Source: Mobula hypostoma (Eukaryota). Taken from it: 64,000 bases of DNA. The position numbers were made by a program, and so were the translations under genes. Below the pieces are notes generated by a model. That model was not told the DNA's origin, did no database searches, and saw nothing but the letters and a program-made list of their open reading frames with translations. The stretch is taken from NCBI RefSeq assembly GCF_963921235.1, contig NC_086097.1:86244001-86308000 (forward strand). The letters are read 5' to 3'. Shown one piece after another: positions 22,048-59,076 of this stretch (the first letter of the stretch is position 1; every line of letters begins with the position of its first letter).

Positions 22048-23910
22048 GAAACATAGAAACATAGAAAAGAGGTGCAGGAGTAGGCCACTCGGCCCTTCGA
22101 GCCTGCACCGCCATTCAGTATGATCATGGCTGATCATCCAACTCAGAACCCTGTACCAGCCTTCCCTCCATACCCCCTGATCCCTTTAGCCACAAGGGCC
22201 ATATCTAACTCCCTCTTAAATATAGCCAATGAACTGGCCTCAACTGTTTCCTGTGACAGAGAATTCCACAGATTCACCACTCTCTGTGTGAAGAAGTTTT
22301 TCCTAATCTCGGTCCTAAAAGGCTTCCCCTTTATCCTCAAATTGTGACCCCTCGTCCTGGACTTCCTCAACATTGGGAACAATCTTCCTGCATCTAGCCT
22401 GTCCAATCCCTTTAGGATTTTATACGTTTCAAGCAGATCCCCCCTCAATCTTCTAAATTCCAATGAGTACAAGCCCAGTTCATCCAGTCTTTCATCATAT
22501 GAAAGTCCTGCCATCCCAGGAATCAATCTGGTGAACCTTCTTTGTACTCCCTCTATGGCAAGGATGTCTTTCCTCAGATTAGGGGACCAAAACTGCACAC
22601 AATACTCCAGGTATGGTCTCACCAAGGCCTTGTACAACTGCAGTATTACCTCCCTGCTCCTGTACTCGAATCCTCTTGCTATAAATGCCAGCATACCATT
22701 CGCCTTTTTCACCACCTGCTGTACCTGCATGCCCACTTTCAATGACTGCTGTATAATGACACCCAGGTCTCATTGCACCTCCCCTTTTCCTAATCAGCCA
22801 CCATTCAGATAATAATCTGTTTTCCTGTTTTTGCCACCAAAGTGGATAACTTCACATTTATCCACATTAAATTGCATCTGCCATGAATTTGTCCACTCAC
22901 CTAACCTTTCCAAGTCACCCTGCATCCTCTTAGCATCCTCCTCACAGCTAACACTGCCGCCCAGCTTCGTGTCATCCGCAAACTTGGAGATGCTGCATTT
23001 AATTCCCTCATCCAAGTCACTATTATATATTGTAAACAACTGGGGTCCCAGCACTGAGCCTTGCGGTACCCCACTAGTCACTGCCTGCCATTCTGAAAAG
23101 GTCCCATTTATTCCCACTCTTTGCTTCCTGTCTGCCAACCAATTCTCTATCCACATCAATACCTTACCCCCAATACCGTATGCTTTAAGTTTGCACACTA
23201 ATCTCCTGTGTGGGACCTTGTCAAAAGCCTTTTGAAAATCCAAATATACCACATCCACTGGTTCTCCCCTATTCACTCTACTAGTTACATCCTCAAAAAA
23301 TTCTACGAGATTCGTCAGACATGATTTTCCTTTCACAAATCCATTCTGACTTTGTCCGATGATTTCACCGCTTTCCAAATGTACTGTTATCACATCTTGG
23401 CTAACTGACTCTAGCATTTTCCCCACCACCAATGTTAGGCTAACCGGTCTATAATTCCCTGGTTTCTCTCTCCCTCCTTTTTTAAAAAGTGGAGTTACAT
23501 TAGCCACCCTCCAATCCTCAGGAACTAGTCCAGAATCTAACGAGTTTTGAAAAATTATCACTAATGCATCCACTATTTCTTGGGCTACTTCCTTAAGCAC
23601 TCTGGGATGCAGACCATCTGGCCCTGGGGATTTATCTGCCTTTAATCCCTTCAATTTACCTAACACCACTTCCCTACTAATATGTATTTCCCTCAGTTCC
23701 TCCATCTCACTGGACCCTCTGTCCCCTACTATTTCCGGAAGATTATTTATGTCCTCCTTAGTGAAGACAGAACCAAAGTAATTATTCAATTGGTCTGCCA
23801 TGTCCTTGCTCCCCATAATCAATTCACCTGTTTCTGTCTGTAGAGGACCTACATTTGTCTTAACCAATATTTTTCTTTTCACATATCTATAAAAGCTTTT
23901 ACAGTCAGTT
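22048..23910 (-). mobile_element. Young 5'-truncated CR1 LINE; RT ORFs 23882-22794 and 22742-22143
   Basis: YLDFQKAFDKVPH, GVPQGSVLGP and KFADD motifs; (TTTCTATG)n tail. Confidence 0.95.
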
Positions 23911-24199
23911 GTAACTTAATGAGTGATAATTCAGTTCTATCATAATAGTTGTGCTCTTATAGACACTTAATGCACCCTGGCATTCAAAAAAAAAAACAGG
24001 AAATAGCAAATGCTGGAAACACGGAACAGGTTAAGCGGTATTCATGGAGAGAGATTGTTTCTATTGAGAAATTGAAACCGAGATTCAGAATGGACCAAGG
24101 ATTGGAAAGCAACAAAAAATAAAGCAGACTCCAGAAATCTGAGGATGCTGTTGGGGTTTTCCAAATTTCTTTTTTATTTCAGATTCTGAGCATCTGCCA

Positions 24200-26790
24200 T
24201 GTCATGCTATGGAACAAAGGAAATTACAGTGGTATGAGAGAGGAATTGGCCCAAGTAGATTGGAAAAGTAAGCTAGATGGAGGGATGGTAGAGCAGAATT
24301 GGATGAAATTCCTACAAGAAATAAGTAAAATGCAGGAAAAGTATATTCCAAGAAAAAAGAAAATCATGAATGGAAAAATGGCTCAAATGTGGCTAACGAG
24401 AGAGGTTAAGGCTAAAATAAAAGCAAAGGAGACGGCGTACAAGGAAGCAAAAACTGAAGACTGGACGACTTTTAAAAACTTACAGAAGGAAACTAAGAAA
24501 GTCATTAGGAAAGAAAAGATGAATTATGAAAGGAAGTTGGCAATTAGCATAAAAAAGGATACCAAGAGTTTTTTTAAATATATGAAGAGTAAAAGAGTGA
24601 CGCGGCTAGATATAGGACCGATTGAAAATGATGCTGGAGAAATTATAATAGGTAACAAAGAGATGGCAGAGGAACTGAATGAGTATTTTGCATCAGTCTT
24701 CACAGTGGAAGACATTAGCAACATACCTGATAGCCAGAGGTCTCAGGGAATAGAATTAGGTACAGTCAAGATTACTAGAGAGAAAGTGCTTGGGAAGCTA
24801 AATGGGCTAAGAATAGATAAGTCTCCCGGACCAGATGAGGTGCACCCATGGGTTCTGAAGGAGGTGGCTTTGGAGATTGTGGAGGCATTGGAAATGATCT
24901 TTCAGGAATCAATAGACTCTGGCATGGTTCCGGAGGACTGGAAGTTCACAAATGTAGTTCCGCTGTTTAAGAAAGGGGGGACGCAGCAAAAAGAAAATTA
25001 CAGACCTATTAGTCTGACATTGGTAGTTGTAAAGTTATTGGAGTTGATCCTCAAGGACGAGGTTAGGAAATACCTCGAGGTGCATGACAAGATAGGCCCA
25101 AGTCAGCATGGTTTCATGAAGGGAAGGTCCTGCCTCATCAACCTACTGGAATTTTTTGAGGTAATCTCAAATAAGTGTATGCAGTTTTTTTTTGTATGTT
25201 AAATTTAAAATGGCTTCTTTGTTATGTTATACTTGGGAATGCTTCTTTCTTATGTTAAATGCTGAGAAAGTCTCTAGCTAGACATTTGCTTGGGTTAGTA
25301 CAGACAGCAGGGTGCTATTAGCCAATGGGTATTCATGTTATCGTTTTTTTTCGCGTGATAATGCTGTCTCATATGACTGGGAACGGGAGTTTTTGGCGGG
25401 GAGTCGGAGGAGAGACGGGGAGGACGGTGGACGTGCGAAAGGCTCCGGTCGATCACTCCGGGTGGTCCAGAGCCGTGAGTCAACAGGATTCAGGTAGTCG
25501 TCAGGAATTTATTGAGCTCCAACAGTTGTGCACGAAGAACTTGGACTTTGATAAGTCTGGCACCTTTTTTTTCCATTACTTCTTTTTCTGTATCGAATTT
25601 ATATTAATTTCGTAGACTTAGTAACATCTATAAAGTGTACTTGGTGAAACGTACTGTGTGTGCTGGCTGATGATTGATGTCTGGGATTGATTTGGGCAGC
25701 GGGGTGCAGCAACTGACTCCGTGGGAAGCGTTCAGGCAAGAGCTGGGCAGGATTTCCCCTAGACATATATGAGCCAATATAACTGAGCATTACATAAGAT
25801 TGGTAAGGGGGAGGCTGTGGATGTTGTGTATTTGGATTTTCAAAAGGCCTTCGATAAGGTGCCACATAAGAGGCTGCTTAATAAGATGAGACCCCATGGA
25901 ATTACAGGAAAGATATTGGAATGGGTGGAGCATTGGCTGATAGGCAGAAAGCAAAGGGTGGGAATAAAGGGATCCTATTCCGATTGGTTGCCGGTTACTA
26001 GTGGTGTTCCGCAGGGGTCGGTGTTGGGGCCGCTTCTTTTTGCAATGTATGTCGATGATTTAGATTATGGATTAAATGGTTTTGTGGCTAAGTTTGTGGA
26101 TGACACCAAGATAGGTGGAGGAGCAGGATGTGTTGAAGAAACAGAAAAGTTGCAGAGAGACTTGGTCAGTTTAGGAGAGTGGGCAAAGAAATGGCAGATG
26201 AGATACAATGTTGAGAAATGTACGGTTGTACATTTTGGAAGAAGAAATAATCGGGCAGATTATTATTTAGATGGGGAGAAAATTCAAAAATCGGAAGTGC
26301 AAAGGGACTTGGGGTTCCTCGTGCAGGCTACCCTAAAGGTTAACCACCAGGTTGGATCGGCAGTAAGGAAAGCGAATGCTATGTTGGCATTCATTTCAAG
26401 AGGAATAGTGTATAAGAGTAAAGAGGTGTTGATGAGACTCTATGGGGCACTGGTAAGACCTCATTTGGAATACTGTGTGCAGTTTTGGGCCCCCTATCTT
26501 AGAAGGGATGTTCTGCTGTTGGAGAGAGTTCAGAGAAGATTTACGAAGATGATTCCTGGAATGCAGGGGCTAACGTATGAGCAGAATTTGTCGGCTTTTG
26601 GACTGTATTCATTAGAGTATTGAAGAATGAGAGAGGATCTCAAAGAAACATTTCGAATGTTGATAGGGTTGGACAGAGTAGATATGGAAAGGCTGTTTCC
26701 CTTGGTGGGTGAGTCCAGGACAAGAGGCCACAGTCTTAGAATCAGAGGGTACTCATTTAAAACAGAATAGAGAATGAATTTTTAGCTAAC
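24200..26790 (+). mobile_element. CR1 LINE ORF2 fragment split by a solo LTR
   Basis: ORFs 24204-25202 and 25817-26623 are consecutive parts of CR1 ORF2. Confidence 0.95.
25176..25794 (+). mobile_element. Solo LTR inserted in CR1
   Basis: TGTA...TACA termini; perfect 4-bp TSD TAAG (25172-25175, 25795-25798). Confidence 0.85.
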
Positions 26791-27009
26791 CTTTCTTGAA
26801 AAAGCAGGTAGTTAAGCTTAGCTTACCTGTCTTGAAATTACTTGCTTTCTCTTTCATATATTTTAAAAACTCATAAGGTAAACATAATAATTCTCTCAAT
26901 TCTGAGGCGAACTTGAGATAAGCATACACTGTTGCACTTGCAACTGAAATGAGACGATTTCTATCCTTGCTCTAGATGCTTGTTAAACAAGAAAACCTTG
27001 CTCACACCC

Positions 27010-27395
27010 CACCTGGTCAGATCCCACTTGGAGTACTGTGCTCAATTCTGGTTGCCCCACTACAAGAAGGACGTGGAAACCATAGAAAGGGTGCAGGGGA
27101 GATTTACAAAAACGTTGCCTGGTTTGGGGAGCATGCCTAATGAGAATAGGTTGAGTGAACTCGGCTTTTTCTCTTTTTCACTCAGAGAGTGGTGAGTGCA
27201 TGGAATGGGCTGCCAGCGGTGGTGGTGGAGGCGGAAATGATAGGGTCTTTTAAGAGACTCCTGGATAGGTACATGGAGCTTAGAAAAATAGAGAGCTATG
27301 GGAAAGTCGAGATAGTTCTAAGGTAAGGACATGTTCGGCACAGCTTTGTGGGCTGAAGGGCCTTTTTACTGTAGGTTTTCTATGTTTCTATGTTC
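27010..27395 (+). mobile_element. CR1 3' fragment
   Basis: LVRSHLEYCAQFW motif and TTTCTATG tail. Confidence 0.85.
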
Positions 27396-27479
27396 CACAC
27401 ATGTAAGAATTTGAAAACTGCAGCAAAACGTTCATTACTTTCCGATGTATGGCAGGATACTCTTCTTTCACAAAAATCC

Positions 27480-28840
27480 AGAAGTAATCCAGGAAATTAT
27501 AGGCTGGTAAGTTTGAGGTCAGTAGTGGGTAAATTATTGGATGGAGTACTAAGAGATAGAATCTACAAGTATTTGGATAGACATGGACTTATTAGGGAGA
27601 GTCAACATGGCTTTGTGCGTGGTAGGTCATGTTTAACCAATCTATTAGAGTTTTTCGAGGAGGTTACCAGGAAAGTGGATGAAGGGAAGGCAGTGGGTGT
27701 TGTCTACATGGACTTCAGTGAGGCCTTTGACAAGGACCCGCATGGGAGGTTAGTTAGGAAGATTCAGTCGCTAGGTATACATGGAGAGGTGGTAAATTGG
27801 ATTAGACATTGGCTCAATGGAAGAAGCCAGGGAGTGGTTGGTGAGGATTGCTTCTCTGAGTGGAGGCCTGTGACTAGTGGTGTGCCACAGGGATCAGTGC
27901 TGGGTCCATTGTTATTTGTCATCTATATCAATGATCTGGATGATAATATGGTAAATTGGATCAGCAAATTTGCTGATGATACAAAGATTGGAGATTTGGA
28001 CCAGCTGGAAAAATGGGCTGAGAAATGGCAGATGGAGTTTAATACAGACAAGTATGAGGTATTGCGCTTTGGAAGGACAAACCAAAGTAGAACATACAAG
28101 GTAAATGGTAGGGCAAGGAGGAGTGCAGTAGAACAGAGGGGTCTGGGAATACAGATACAAAATTCCCTAAAAGCGGCGTCACAGGTAAATAGGGTTGTAA
28201 AGAGAGATTTTGGTACATTGGCCTTTATAAATCAAAGTATTGAGTATAAGAGTTGGAATGTTATGGTGAGGTGGTATAAGGCATTGGTGAGGCCGAATTT
28301 GGAGTATTGTGTACAGTTTTGGTCACCTAATTACAGGAAGGATATTAATAAGGTTGAAAAAAGGTTTACAAAAATGTTGCCGGGACTTGAGAAACTCAGT
28401 TACAGAGAAAGGTTGAATAGGTTAGGACTTCATTCCCTGGAGGGTAGAAGAATGAGGGGAGACTTGATTGAGGTATATAAAATTATGATGGGTATAGATA
28501 GAGTGAACGCAAGCAGGCTTTTTCCACTGAGGCTAGGGGAGAAAAAAACCAGAGGACATGAGTTAAGGGTGAAGGGAGAGAACTTTAAAGGGAACTTTGG
28601 GGGGGCTTTTTCACACAGAGAGTGGTGGGAGTGTGGAATGAGCTGTCAGATGAAGTGGTAAACGCAGGCTCACTTTTAACATTTAAGAAAAACTTGGACA
28701 GGTACATGGATTAGATGTGTATGGAGGATATGGTCCAGGTGCAGGTCAGTGGGACTAGGCAGAAAAATGGTTTGGCACAGCCAAGAAGGGCCAAAAGGCC
28801 TGTTTCTCTGCTGTAGTGTTCTATGGTTCTATGGTTCTAT
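27480..28840 (+). mobile_element. 5'-truncated CR1 LINE with an open RT frame
   Basis: ORF 27390-28661 with RT motifs; (GTTCTATG)n tail. Confidence 0.95.
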
Positions 28841-29521: not shown

Positions 29522-30225
29522 TTACTTCTTCAGCTGATGATTGGTGTGTCAAGGCTGACCTGGACAGGAAAGGCAGTTTCCCGGAGCAAATAGCTTTCAC
29601 AACATTGTGTCCAGATATAATTGTATGGTCTGACACCAGTAGAGAAGTGGTTATTGGTGAACTCACAGTCCCCTGGGAAGACAACATCGATGAAGCCCAT
29701 GAGCGCAAGTTAACCAAGTATGCAGAATTAAGATCAGAGTGTAGAGACAGAGGGTGGAAGGTCTCATGCTATCCATTCGAAGTAGGCTGCCGTGGGTTTA
29801 TCGCGTTCACTCTCCAGAAGTGGCTGCGTGACCTTGGCTTCACTAGAAGAGAGATCAAGTCAACCAGCAGGGCTGTAGCTGAGGCAGCAGAGAAAGGATC
29901 AGCATGGGTGTGGACCAAGTATGTCCAGAGGGGCAGATAGTCAGACAGTGTATACACATCTTGCAAACCCTTCAGTAGCTGCATAGACACCTGAAGAGTA
30001 GACTATCTGTTGGATGGAAGTGACCAACAACTCTGATAGAAGCAGATGCCAAGTTTTTAAGCTCACCAGTGGGAGGTTGTGCTTTAGCACTGCTGGCCCA
30101 CCACCTCGAGGGAGTCTTGATCATAAGCAGGCCGAAACTCCTGAAGACAGGTGGCAGATCAACTGATAATCCCACTGGTGATAGCACAGAACAGTTAACA
30201 TCTTAGTCCATGTGTATTTTGTAAC
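29522..30225 (+). mobile_element. HERO-type non-LTR retrotransposon 3' end (restriction-like endonuclease domain and 3' UTR)
   Basis: CPDIIVWS...ELTVPWE...AHERK..KY..L...C...GW....PFEVGCRGF is the PD-(D/E)xK RLE signature typical of HERO elements; stop at 29940. Confidence 0.85.
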
Positions 30226-30299
30226 TCAAGAAAGTGCTATTAATAATGGTTTTCATTGAATTTCTTTGCTTTTGAACGACTAATAAGCTGTTGCTTGTC

Positions 30300-55247: not shown

Positions 55248-57903
55248 TTACAAGAAGTATATTTGCAGATCAATTCCATCAGGCAGTCGGGTCCGTCGCT
55301 GTGATCTACGTAGCACCGGTGGTGATTGCACTAGCAATGGTGGTTGTGCTGGCTCCGGCCTGACTTGAGGTGTCAGCACGTTAGGCGTCGGTAATCCCTC
55401 GCCCGGTGCTCCTGTGGGCCTCAGGTCGCGGATGGAGACCGTGTCCTCCCGCCCATCAGGTAAAACCACGTAGGCATACTGGGGGTTCGCGTGAAGTAAG
55501 TGAACCCTCTCAACCATCGGGGAGTATTTATTGCTCCTCGTATGTTTCCGGAGCAGCACTGGCCCCAGGGATGTCAGCCATGGTGGTAGGGTGGTTCCAG
55601 TGGTCGATTTTCTGGGAAATGAAAAGAGCCGCTCATGAGGGGTGGCATTGGTGGCTGTGCATAACAGGGAGCGGATGGAGTGGAGAGCCTCGGGAAGGAC
55701 CTCCTGCCAGCGGGAGACCGGCAGTCCCTTTGACCTGAGGGCTAAGAGTGTGGCTTTCCACACTGTGCCATTCTCCTTCTCTACCTGTCCATTCCCCCAG
55801 GGATTATAGCTCGTGGTCCTACTGGTTGCAATTCCCCTAGCCAGCAGGTATTGGTGCAGCTCATCACTCATAAACGAGGACCCTCTGTCACTGTGGATAT
55901 AGCATGCGTATCCGAACAGAGTGAAGAGCTTGCGCAGGGCTTTTATAACTGACGTGGTAGTAGTGACGGGGCAGGGGATGGTGAAGGGGAACCGTGAGTA
56001 CTCGTCGATAATGTTAAGAAAGTACACATTGCGGTCGGTGGAGGGAAGGGGGACCTAAAAGTCAACACTCAGTCGCTCAAAGGGGCGGGTGGCCTGATGA
56101 GTGGTGCCTTTTCGGGTCGGTAGAAGTGCGGTTTGCACTCTGCGCAGACTTGGCAGTCCCTGGTCATCATCCTGATCTCCTCAAGGGAGTAAGGCAGGTT
56201 CCGTGCTTTCATGAAGTGGAAAAGCCGGTTGACCCCCGGGTGGCAAAGATCTGTATGTAGGGCGTATAGCCGGTCGATCTGCGCGCTGGCGCATGTTCCC
56301 CGGGATAGGGCATCGGAGTGCTCATTGAGTTTCCCAGGCCTGTACATGATGTCATAGTTGTAGGTGGAGAGTTCGATTCTCCACCTCAGAATTTTATCAT
56401 TTTTGATTTTCCCCCGCTGTTGGTTATTAAACATGAATGCAACTGAGCGCTGGTCAGTTAGGGTGAACCTTTTGCCGGCGAGATAGTGCCTCCAGTGCCT
56501 AATAGCTTCCACTATGGCCTGGGCCTCTTTCTCCACCGCGGAGTGCCAAATTTCAGGGCCTTAAAGGGTACGGGAGAAGAACGCCACTGGTCTTCCCGCC
56601 TGGTTGAGGGTAGCAGCCAGCACAAAGTCGGAGGCGTCACTCTGTGCTTGGAAGGGAATGGCCTCATCCACCGCATGCATTGCTGCTTTGGCAACGTCCC
56701 CTTTAATGCAGCTGAAGGCCGCATGGGCCTCGGCTGAGAGGGGGAATGTGGTGGACTTAACCAGGGGGCGGGCCTTGTCTGCATAGTTAGAGACCCATTG
56801 GATGTAATATGAAAAGAAGCCCAGGCACCTTTTGAGGGCTCTGAGGGTATTGGGAAGAGGGAGTTCCAACGGGGGCACATATGGTCGGGGTCAGGGCCAA
56901 TGACTCCACTCTCCACGACACACCCAAGGATAGCAAGTCGGGTGGTCCCAAATACACACTTGTCCTTGTTATAGGTGAGATTGAAAGCTTTGACCACTTG
57001 GAGAAATTTTTGGAGGTTGTTGTCATGATCCTGCTGGTTGTGACCACAGATGGTGATGTTATCCAGATATGGGAATGTGGCCTTCAGTTGGCACTGGTCC
57101 ACCATCCGGTCCATTGCCCTCTGGAAGACAGGTACACCATTTGTGACACCGAAGGGGACGCGCAGGAATTGATAAAGCCTGCCGTCCGCCTCGAAGGCAG
57201 TGTAAGGGCAGTCCTCCCGGCGGATGGGGAACTGATGGTAAGCGGATTTTAGGTCTATGGTCGAGTACACCTTGTACTTTGCAATCTGATTGACCATATC
57301 TGCGATGCAGGGTAGGTGGTACGCGTCGAGCTGCATGAACCTATTGATGGTCTGGCTATAGTCCACGACCATCCTATTCTTCTCCCCGTTCCGAACAACG
57401 ACCACCTGCGCCCTCCAAGGACTTGTGCTTGCCTCAGTGACCCCCTCCCTGAGCAGCCGCTGCACCTCCGACTTAATGAAGGCTCTGTCCCCCGCGCTGT
57501 ACCTCCTGCTTTTAGTTGCCACAGGTTTACAGTCGGGGGTCAGGTTGGCGAACAGCGGTGGGGGAGGGATCTTGAGGGTGGAGAGGCCACAAGTGGTGTC
57601 AGTAGTGTGGCTGTTGGTATGGTGTTGGGTGGGATGCGCGGGTCGGTGTGTGTGTGTGGTCAGTAGCGGGGTATGTGACATATTCCTACAAAACTGGGGA
57701 TTTACGACAGTAATTGGTGGGAGGGGCCCATCATACTTCATTGTCACGCTTTTCAGGTGGCTCTGGAAGTCGAGCCCCAATAGCACAGGGGCACACAGTT
57801 GAGGCAAGACCAGTAACGTAAAGTCCCGATATTCTGTGCCCTGCACCACTAGCGTCGCTACACAACCCCCCCGGATGTCTGTTGTATGCGACCCGGAAGC
57901 CAT
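55248..57903 (-). pseudogene. pol: Pol (RT, RNase H, integrase) of the Gypsy element, frameshifted
   Basis: IDLKSAYHQ, VPFGVTN, YLDN; SDASD...FFSRTL; TDQRS; HHCC zinc finger; DEYSRF, HSDRG, NGQVE; no chromodomain visible. Confidence 0.92.
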
Positions 57904-57912
57904 GGTGACCCT

Positions 57913-59076
57913 CTAACTTACCGGCCATATCACGAGTCTGCAATGCTGCACCGTGTCCAGGTGGATAAAACTCTCCATGCTGCCTGTGTCAAACAGGCAG
58001 CTTGTCCTGCGCCTCTCCACCAGGATGTCCATCACTGACCTTGTGAACTGGTGGGGAGCGCTTTGGTCGAGGGTCACGGAGGCCAGGGTTGAGTTGCTGT
58101 CTTGGTCTGGCGCGGTGGGGTGTCCCGTGAGCACCCGTTGGTTGTAAGCAGTGGGAGGGGGCCCCGACCAAGATGGCCGCTCCCATGTCTCGCACGTGGT
58201 GGCGGCGTGCAGGGAAGGTGGCGGCAGGCAAGATGGCGACCTCCATGTCTCACACGTGGTGGCGGCGTGCAGGGGAGATGGCGGCAGGCAAGATGGCGAC
58301 CCCCATGTCTTGCACGTGGCGCTGCTCGCTCCCGCTCGCGGTTTGGGCTTACAGACCTTGCCGAAGTGGCCCTTCTTTCCGCAGCTGGAGCAGGTAGCTT
58401 GTCGAGCCGGGCAGCGCTTCCGGGGGTGCTTCTCGAGTTCGCAGAAGTAACACTTAGCGGACTCGCAACTGGCAGCAGCCGAGGTCAATTCGCTGGCGGG
58501 TTGCAGGGTCTGCGGCGCCCACAAGGCTGTCAGGGGATTGCGTGCCTGGAGAGCCTCAGAGTTATGCAGAGCGGCCTCCAGCATGTTGGCCAGCTCGATC
58601 GCCAAACGTAAGGTAAGATCAGCTTTTTCCAGCAGCCGCTGGCGCACATACACTGACCCAGTCCCCGTGACGAAGGCGTCTCTCACTAGGAGTTTTGCAT
58701 GCTGCGCTGCCGTCAGCTCCTGGCAATTGCAGGCTCGCACGAGCGTCTGTAAGGCCTGGACGAACTCAGTAATTGATTCCCCGGGCCGTTGTTATCATGT
58801 TGGTAAGTGATGTCGCGCGTAGACGCTGTTTATCGGCCGCAGGTATTGTCCTTTGAGTGCGCTCATCGCGCTGTCGTAGCTCGGCTGGTCTCTGATCAGT
58901 GAATAGACCCGTGGACTGACCCTGGAGAGTAGAACTCTGCGCTTCGCTACGGGGTCGGTCGCTTTAATCTCCTCTAGATACGCTTCGAAGCAGGCCAGCC
59001 AGAGTTCGAAAGCGTTTCCAGCTTCAGGCACTTGCGGGTCGAGGTCTAACTTGTCGGGTCTCAAAGCGTGTTCCAT
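57913..59076 (-). pseudogene. gag: Gag (two zinc knuckles) and aspartic protease of the Gypsy element; premature stops near 58795
   Basis: CYFC...H....C and CSSCGKKGHF..VC; LFDTGS protease motif. Confidence 0.9.
58171..58320. repeat. 60-bp tandem repeat (2.5 copies) within gag
   Basis: Directly visible; encodes in-frame 20-aa units. Confidence 0.9.

Follow-up and report, generated by a model that had tools for sequence, protein, structure and literature searches.

A conserved hammerhead core with a stem II completed from upstream, probably self-cleaving, in the 3' UTR of a HERO-like retrotransposon, and a possible circular template for its copying

A stretch of 64,000 nt from Mobula hypostoma (contig NC_086097.1, positions 86,244,001 to 86,308,000 of the forward strand; hereafter the window, to which all coordinates refer) carries hammerhead-like strings in the 3' UTR of a 5'-truncated retrotransposon copy (29526-30227), in an order that a first-pass annotation had taken to be novel. 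The locus raises the questions of whether these strings belong to a ribozyme and of what such an RNA would do for the element that carries it. Each of the strings was verified in place (GGGAGT-C-TTGATC at 30110-30122, GGCC-GAAA-CTCCT at 30130-30142 and GATCAA-CTGATAA at 30157-30169), as was a 12-bp helix formed by 30063-30074 and 30170-30181. The observation was thereby confirmed, and the interpretation placed on it is supported in part, as set out below.

The host family is abundant, with 1738 first-look candidates in a search of the Mobula hypostoma genome. Longer copies encode a single ORF with a reverse transcriptase (RVT_1, scoring below the Pfam cut-off), a CCHC knuckle (zf-RVT; both Pfam scores were weak) and a C-terminal PD..D/ExK-like nuclease whose motif was spotted by eye, and R2 proteins were the nearest solved structures to the element protein. 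The element was assigned to the RLE type because of this combination of reverse transcriptase, CCHC knuckle and PD..D/ExK-like tail, with R2 proteins nearest. The family is putatively HERO, the name used in the first-pass annotation. Insertions of the family are dispersed and show no site specificity, which fits the description of HERO in the accessible text of an earlier report (PMC4640811). Elsewhere in the window, the reverse strand at 55248-58791 holds a disrupted LTR-type retroelement whose protease-like, RT, RNase H and integrase pieces follow the Ty3/Gypsy order. Several fragments of LINE-type RT ORFs, which we take to be CR1-like, lie on both strands at 22143-28661.

The features of the copy and of the predicted ribozyme RNA, which is about 130 nt long, are as follows.

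29526-30227, + strand: high-copy, 5'-truncated, RLE-type (HERO-like) non-LTR retrotransposon copy, 96.4% identical over 702 nt to a longer copy
29526-29940, + strand: C-terminal part of the ORF, PD..D/ExK-like endonuclease region (PDIIVW...ELTVPWE), stop at 29938-29940
30063-30074, + strand: helix X, 5' strand, pairs with 30170-30181 (12 bp, from sequence pairing)
30075-30094, + strand: hairpin H, 8 bp in most copies, directly abutting X on one side and stem II on the other; T30078 here, mostly G
30095-30099, + strand: stem II, 5' strand (G10.1 = G30095), contributed by sequence 5' of the cut site; 96% of alignment cells paired
30101-30106, + strand: helix Z, 5' strand, pairs with 30149-30154; two-sided change in 6/6 pairs, 88% paired
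30107-30109, + strand: non-bulged strand (C-G-A) of a kink-turn-like motif, from the GA / NNN-GA pattern
30110-30122, + strand: block S, comprising a stem III strand, the predicted cleavage nucleotide C17 (30116) and a stem I strand; from verified strings, descriptor and alignment
30129-30142, + strand: block G, comprising the stem II 3' strand, GAAA and a stem III strand; A30129 here, G in most copies
30143-30154, + strand: bulged strand (GAA-GA-C) of the kink-turn-like motif and 3' strand of helix Z, from pattern and alignment
30157-30169, + strand: stem I strand and CUGAnGA core; CUGAUAA in the window copy (G8A), likely inactive
30170-30181, + strand: helix X, 3' strand, directly after A9, at the position of stem II in all described hammerheads
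30182-30227, + strand: 3' tail without poly(A), which also precedes the 5' UTR in full-length insertions; units end at 30225-30229

The order from 5' to 3' is thus X', hairpin H, II', Z, GA, III', N17, I', a short linker, II, GAAA, III, NNN-GA, Z', I, CUGAnGA and X. Both strands of the window were searched with a relaxed descriptor in which G8 was left free, and one match only was obtained, with N17 at 30116. The core of the window copy reads CUGAUAA (G8A) and that of most family copies CUGAUGA; G is found at 30168 in 28 of the 30 top copies and in 188 of 197 distinct units, and the earlier suspicion of a decayed copy was thus borne out. Because of G8A and the 5' truncation the window copy is likely dead, and as judged from its letters its RNA is likely inactive. 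All tested core positions are intact in 123/188 family units. The G at 30129 in most family copies gives a 5-bp helix with 30095-30099, and the G at 30078 perfects the hairpin at 30075-30094. A further CUGAnGA, read from the sequence at 30141-30147, was rejected; it has no stem I or GAAA partner and overlaps stem III and the kink-turn-like bulge. Rfam models gave no hammerhead match in the window region or in six intact loci, and the chance matches obtained in the window region (MIR390, far below gathering score) were discarded. Single-strand folding, a method blind to pseudoknots, recovered X and H with z scores of -3.1 to -4.6. A competing 9-bp helix (30073-81:30099-107, -15.6 kcal/mol) is present in the window family and, on this energy model, could misfold it.

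Distant relatives were gathered by a protein-alignment search, from which the best 80 of 552 metagenome loci were taken (best segments 35-47% identical to the query protein) and 75 of these 80, having at least 100 nt beyond the ORF match, were retained. A strict descriptor (U-N17, GAAA and CUGAnGA in order, with stems I and III) matched 54 of the 75. This is far above chance: dinucleotide shuffles gave 5 matches in 3750, and viral stretches selected because they contain these core words gave 3 in 80. Both core words were present in 57 relatives, and stems I and III formed in 54 of these. The 21 misses included 3 degenerate-looking loci, several at contig ends and some with long 3' DNA that show nothing. 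Triplets among the 54 were GUU (21), GUC (16), GUA (13) and AUA (4), so that N17, a position left free in the descriptor, was never G. Among the 45 non-redundant relatives N17 was U in 18, A in 14, C in 13 and G in 0, and nominal odds for this pattern overstate the case because the rows are related. The NUH rule (N17 not G) thus holds in the family's relatives; N7 takes all four letters among the 45, and the A15.1-U16.1 pair is kept.

For the analysis of covariation, a MAFFT alignment of 36 rows was made from 35 of the 54 relatives and one natural intact copy; the 19 relatives omitted were near-duplicates, a group whose stem III is followed by a short spacer, and rows with a mis-set stem II start. 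Possession of stems I and III had been the condition for including a row, and rows were cut back at stem II; helix Z was not used in selection. Across stems II, Z, III and I, 91.4% of cells were paired, compared with 62.7% after shuffling (a shuffle that ignores relatedness), and slid registers of the alignment paired at most 47.3%. Two-sided change was found in 21 of the 23 pairs of these four stems. Stems I and III flanking N17, which the first-pass annotation had described around the core, are conserved and covarying across the relatives that match the descriptor, with two-sided change in 11/12 pairs in rows selected for both stems; GAAA is invariant in the alignment, by selection.

The annotation had further stated that a canonical stem II is absent, and this did not hold. 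Stem II exists as the GGCC(C):(G)GGCC helix, that is, as the very pairing with GGCC at 30095-30098 that the annotation had also suspected. It shows two-sided change in 4/5 pairs and reaches at least 5 bp in 38 of the 45 non-redundant relatives (7.5 expected from shuffling), and its 10.1-11.1 pair, next to G12, is G-C in 43/49 and G-U in 4. In 39 of 45 relatives the strand that follows A9 forms no pair with the nucleotides preceding GAAA; it forms 1-2 bp in 5 and 5 bp in 1. It pairs with the upstream strand of helix X, which reaches at least 9 bp in 25/45 non-redundant relatives, compared with 0.84 when the upstream region was shuffled; the flush hairpin reaches at least 5 bp in 25/45 (0.10 shuffled), and the complete four-way arrangement is present in 22/45. 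The A9-10.1 link is therefore read as opened, because the strand after A9 is clamped in a separate helix X, often with a flush hairpin. In four relatives (L035-L038) a G directly after A9 is able to pair with C11.1, an arrangement that from its sequence may represent an intermediate form. The 5' arm or loop of hairpin H was also seen to hold a second strand pairable with the stem II 3' strand in L044, L046, L050, L051, L054, L056, L067, L069, L075, L087, L091 and L109, possibly an alternative fold or a relic of duplication.

Four features of the fold were unlisted in the first-pass annotation, namely helix Z (30101-06:30149-54), the flush hairpin (30075-94), the kink-turn-like motif and the 5-bp stem II. 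Helix Z reaches at least 4 bp in 52 of the 54 relatives and is likely equivalent to the stem I/II interaction helix of type-SGC hammerheads (see below). In the consensus kink turn, two helices are separated by a bulge of 3 nt and then tandem G.A / A.G pairs. A GA / NNN-GA pattern linking stem III to helix Z was found in 34/54 relatives, with about 3.5% expected per locus, and L3 is U in 25 of these 34 motifs, which are defined by sequence pattern only. We infer that the fold amounts to an SGC ribozyme in which a kink has closed the structure and the A9-10.1 link has been broken open.

Comparative support for this RNA thus comprises six covarying or enriched helices, the core letters, an N17 that is never G, the opened A9-10.1 link and the kink-turn-like joint. 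The pattern of conservation is that of catalysis, because N17 is never G, N7 is free, and the A15.1-U16.1 and G10.1-C11.1 pairs are kept. Given the NUH pattern and the precedent of the tested SGC ribozymes, the RNA is very probably active in intact copies, with predicted cleavage after C17. This activity is an extrapolation, since no hammerhead with a break between A9 and 10.1 is described in the accessible text of the 2023 survey of permuted hammerheads (PMC10085705).

The same evidence bears on two other readings of the fold. A ribozyme-derived RNA that does not cleave, and serves only as a site at which the element protein binds and is positioned, would suit a core split at A9-10.1, the fixed distance from fold to 3' end and the lack of a nick trace at the site in copies (see below); the restriction of N17 to U, A or C, the freedom of N7 and the two kept pairs run against it, and we regard it as improbable. 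The other reading, in which the core assembles only between two RNAs as a dimer or for cleavage in trans, draws on the sterically demanding geometry of four mutually crossing helices with linkers of 0-7 nt, and small Penelope hammerheads reported as dimers offer a parallel. No self-complementary stem is conserved in the alignment as inspected by eye, and type SGC, with a similar linker of about 3 nt, was assayed for cleavage in cis according to the accessible text (PMC10085705), which together make this reading very improbable. A pseudoknotted fold or a dimer had been thought necessary at the outset: the pseudoknotted topology stands, and the dimer is not required by topology because the I-to-II linker of SGC is similarly short.

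The arrangement of genomic copies was then examined. Of 167 ended units, 147 stop at 30225-30229 without poly(A) (14 were unreadable), so that copies end about 110 nt beyond the predicted cut and at a fixed distance from the fold. The tail was found joined to the 5' UTR and the ORF start at three unlinked loci. A search with the 5' UTR only gave 271 candidates, of which 40 were scored and 30 loci fetched, with the query locus excluded from the counts. Of 29 copies holding the 5' UTR, 28 continue upstream into their own tail; 13 of these stop before the predicted cut and 15 cross it, the longest by 1,691 nt of tail. No 5' end of the 29 lies within 5 nt of the predicted cut and there is no pile-up there. 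With these 5' ends and the 3' ends at 30225-30229, the 3'-end processing that had been suggested for the RNA is not supported in a simple form. The junction of tail and 5' UTR is identical in length in 36 of 37 readable cases (of 42), and the head-to-tail layout recurs in 12 of the 37 metagenome loci with at least 250 nt of downstream DNA. It follows from the run-on copies that the template was continuous across the tail-to-5'-UTR junction and across the predicted cut, which fits a circular or otherwise continuous RNA.

Further traces were sought in the copies. Substitutions at 30111-30116 numbered 34 against 21.5 expected (unadjusted p 0.008), an excess outside the top 8 of 201 windows, and a mutation scar at the cut was rejected on this ground; 3' of the cut there were 5 against 20.3 expected, in a sample partly selected on that stretch. 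Divergence within one insertion (117/2510, 4.7%) was hardly closer than between insertions (1234/22389, 5.5%), and no clear target duplication was found in 11 of 12 insertions; neither comparison discriminated between the readings, and both are counted against the circle. Two copies, L199 and L200, begin at an identical 5' end, preceded by about 970 nt of common non-element flank; they lie on different contigs and their 3' flanks differ. L199 carries a 6-bp duplication. The pair looks most simply like a daughter made from linear read-through RNA of a master that lacked an upstream ribozyme; gene conversion is another reading of the common flank, and 5' transduction is likely. Assembled contigs from 23 runs, most only presumed to be RNA, were screened and gave no informative joint. 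In runs X1 and X2, contig depth over L003:1740-1824 (window 30139-30223) exceeded that of the adjacent part more than tenfold, and loose ends occurred at 1739; the organisms concerned may hold a separate short repeat sharing the element tail, and in Mobula hypostoma's own genome no excess over this stretch was found (1374 vs 1359 candidates). Large internal deletions that join the 5' region to the 3' region were seen in L003, L006, L011, L180, L184 and L188.

A second conserved RNA element was seen in the N-terminal coding region of L153, L056, L064, L072, L073, L082, L087 and L095; in L153 it lies on the reverse strand, some 244 nt past the helix X that belongs to the upstream unit. In it, a C-rich strand can pair with the G-rich loop of a hairpin, and a stem of 5-7 bp changes on both sides while the encoded residues change. 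No Rfam match was obtained for it in L153 or L087; from its sequence it is possibly a pseudoknot for translation or protein binding.

We slightly favor a reading in which the HERO-like 3' UTR holds a conserved hammerhead core with a stem II completed from upstream, which likely self-cleaves after C17 (30116) and supports circle-templated copying. The ribozyme would cut read-through or tandem transcripts to unit length at two successive ribozymes, leaving a 5'-OH and a cyclic phosphate that would be held together by X, II, Z and III. The ends would then be rejoined into a circle by the ribozyme or a host ligase, after which the element protein would bind the fold and prime cDNA synthesis from a constant internal site close to 30227, some 45 nt past helix X, and reverse transcription would roll past its own start. 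Helices X, II, Z and III all link the two predicted cleavage products (29 bp), and strand exchange between two ribozyme copies must overcome these 29 bp, which implies a chaperone or a folding switch; the competing 9-bp helix of the window family would be a candidate for the latter. Whether a circle is the main template we hold to be evenly balanced. The broader claim, that an entire clade of autonomous LINE-type elements cuts and rejoins its RNA to circles by means of a split-core hammerhead of a seventh topology, for rolling-circle target-primed synthesis from an internal start, we put a little short of even.

An active ribozyme could also act alongside a linear template. It would then be a switch that cuts or trims unbound transcripts, with protein-bound, uncut RNA being copied, and head-to-tail copies would arise when transcription reads through tandem masters or when the reverse transcriptase jumps precisely between templates, as R2-type enzymes do. 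The common 5' flank of L199 and L200 points to such a linear template and against a circle, and copies show no barrier or scar at the predicted cut. The jumps would have to be near-obligate and near-exact, given that 28/29 copies run on and 36/37 junctions are of the same length, and inherited 5' redundancy would just shrink with each generation. We consider a linear template fairly unlikely and retain copying from a circle as the preferred reading.

If that reading is true, a closed RNA is copied from an internal start and not from a free 3' end, with a bearing on how LINE-type elements define their ends and on tools for RNA-templated gene insertion. Independently of the circle, a likely ribozyme is placed in the 3' UTR of a widespread RLE retrotransposon group, and a stated rule of hammerhead structure, that CUGAnGA is joined to stem II, is broken; the RNA therefore falls outside the six permutations of 2023 and was missed by Rfam. 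In the open literature (subscription journals, Repbase Reports and bioRxiv supplements lying outside the search), neither the opened A9-10.1 wiring nor a hammerhead in a HERO element was found described, and for type SGC a search of the same scope found Eckert 2023 alone (PMC10085705).

The closest known system is type SGC (HRIMA-1 and variants; Eckert, Friedrich, Weinberg and Weinberg 2023, PMC10085705), whose block order, site-GAAA-CUGAnGA, is described in the accessible text together with cleavage in vitro during transcription. The C-B-A order that had been put forward as novel was thus already published; the block order is known, and what is new is the wiring of stem II and the retrotransposon host. 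That text takes the continuity of strand from CUGAnGA to stem II to be unbreakable, and places SGC RNAs beside hairpin ribozymes in metatranscriptomes (PMC10085705). A keyword search of its text and supplement gave no retrotransposon host for SGC, and "kink" and "junction" have 0 occurrences in the supplement (PMC10085705). As far as the accessible text goes, the two RNAs are alike in S-G-C order, the short stem I-to-II linker, all core letters and an additional helix that connects stems I and II on their far sides (helix Z here). They differ in stem II, which follows CUGAnGA directly in type SGC and in the present RNA draws its 5' strand from before the cut site; in the strand after A9, which here enters helix X, a helix of its own that is usually accompanied by a flush hairpin; and in the kink-turn-like motif that here connects the interaction helix to stem III.

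Among retroelements, Penelope-like elements and retrozymes carry hammerheads with the classic three-way junction of type I or III, which are frequently minimal or dimeric, and circular RNAs have been reported for retrozymes. They resemble the present case in having a hammerhead within a retroelement and a terminally redundant head-to-tail layout, and differ in belonging to an element class other than the RLE type. The R2 ribozyme, which is HDV-like, is of another ribozyme class, lies at the 5' end and sets the element's start. In the accessible text on R2, a self-cleaving ribozyme excises the R2 RNA (PMC7650587); as here, a self-cleaving RNA in an RLE-type non-LTR element would free the RNA from a read-through transcript. 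The cut predicted for the HERO-like fold differs from that of R2 in being placed about 110 nt before the 3' end and in being crossed by copies.
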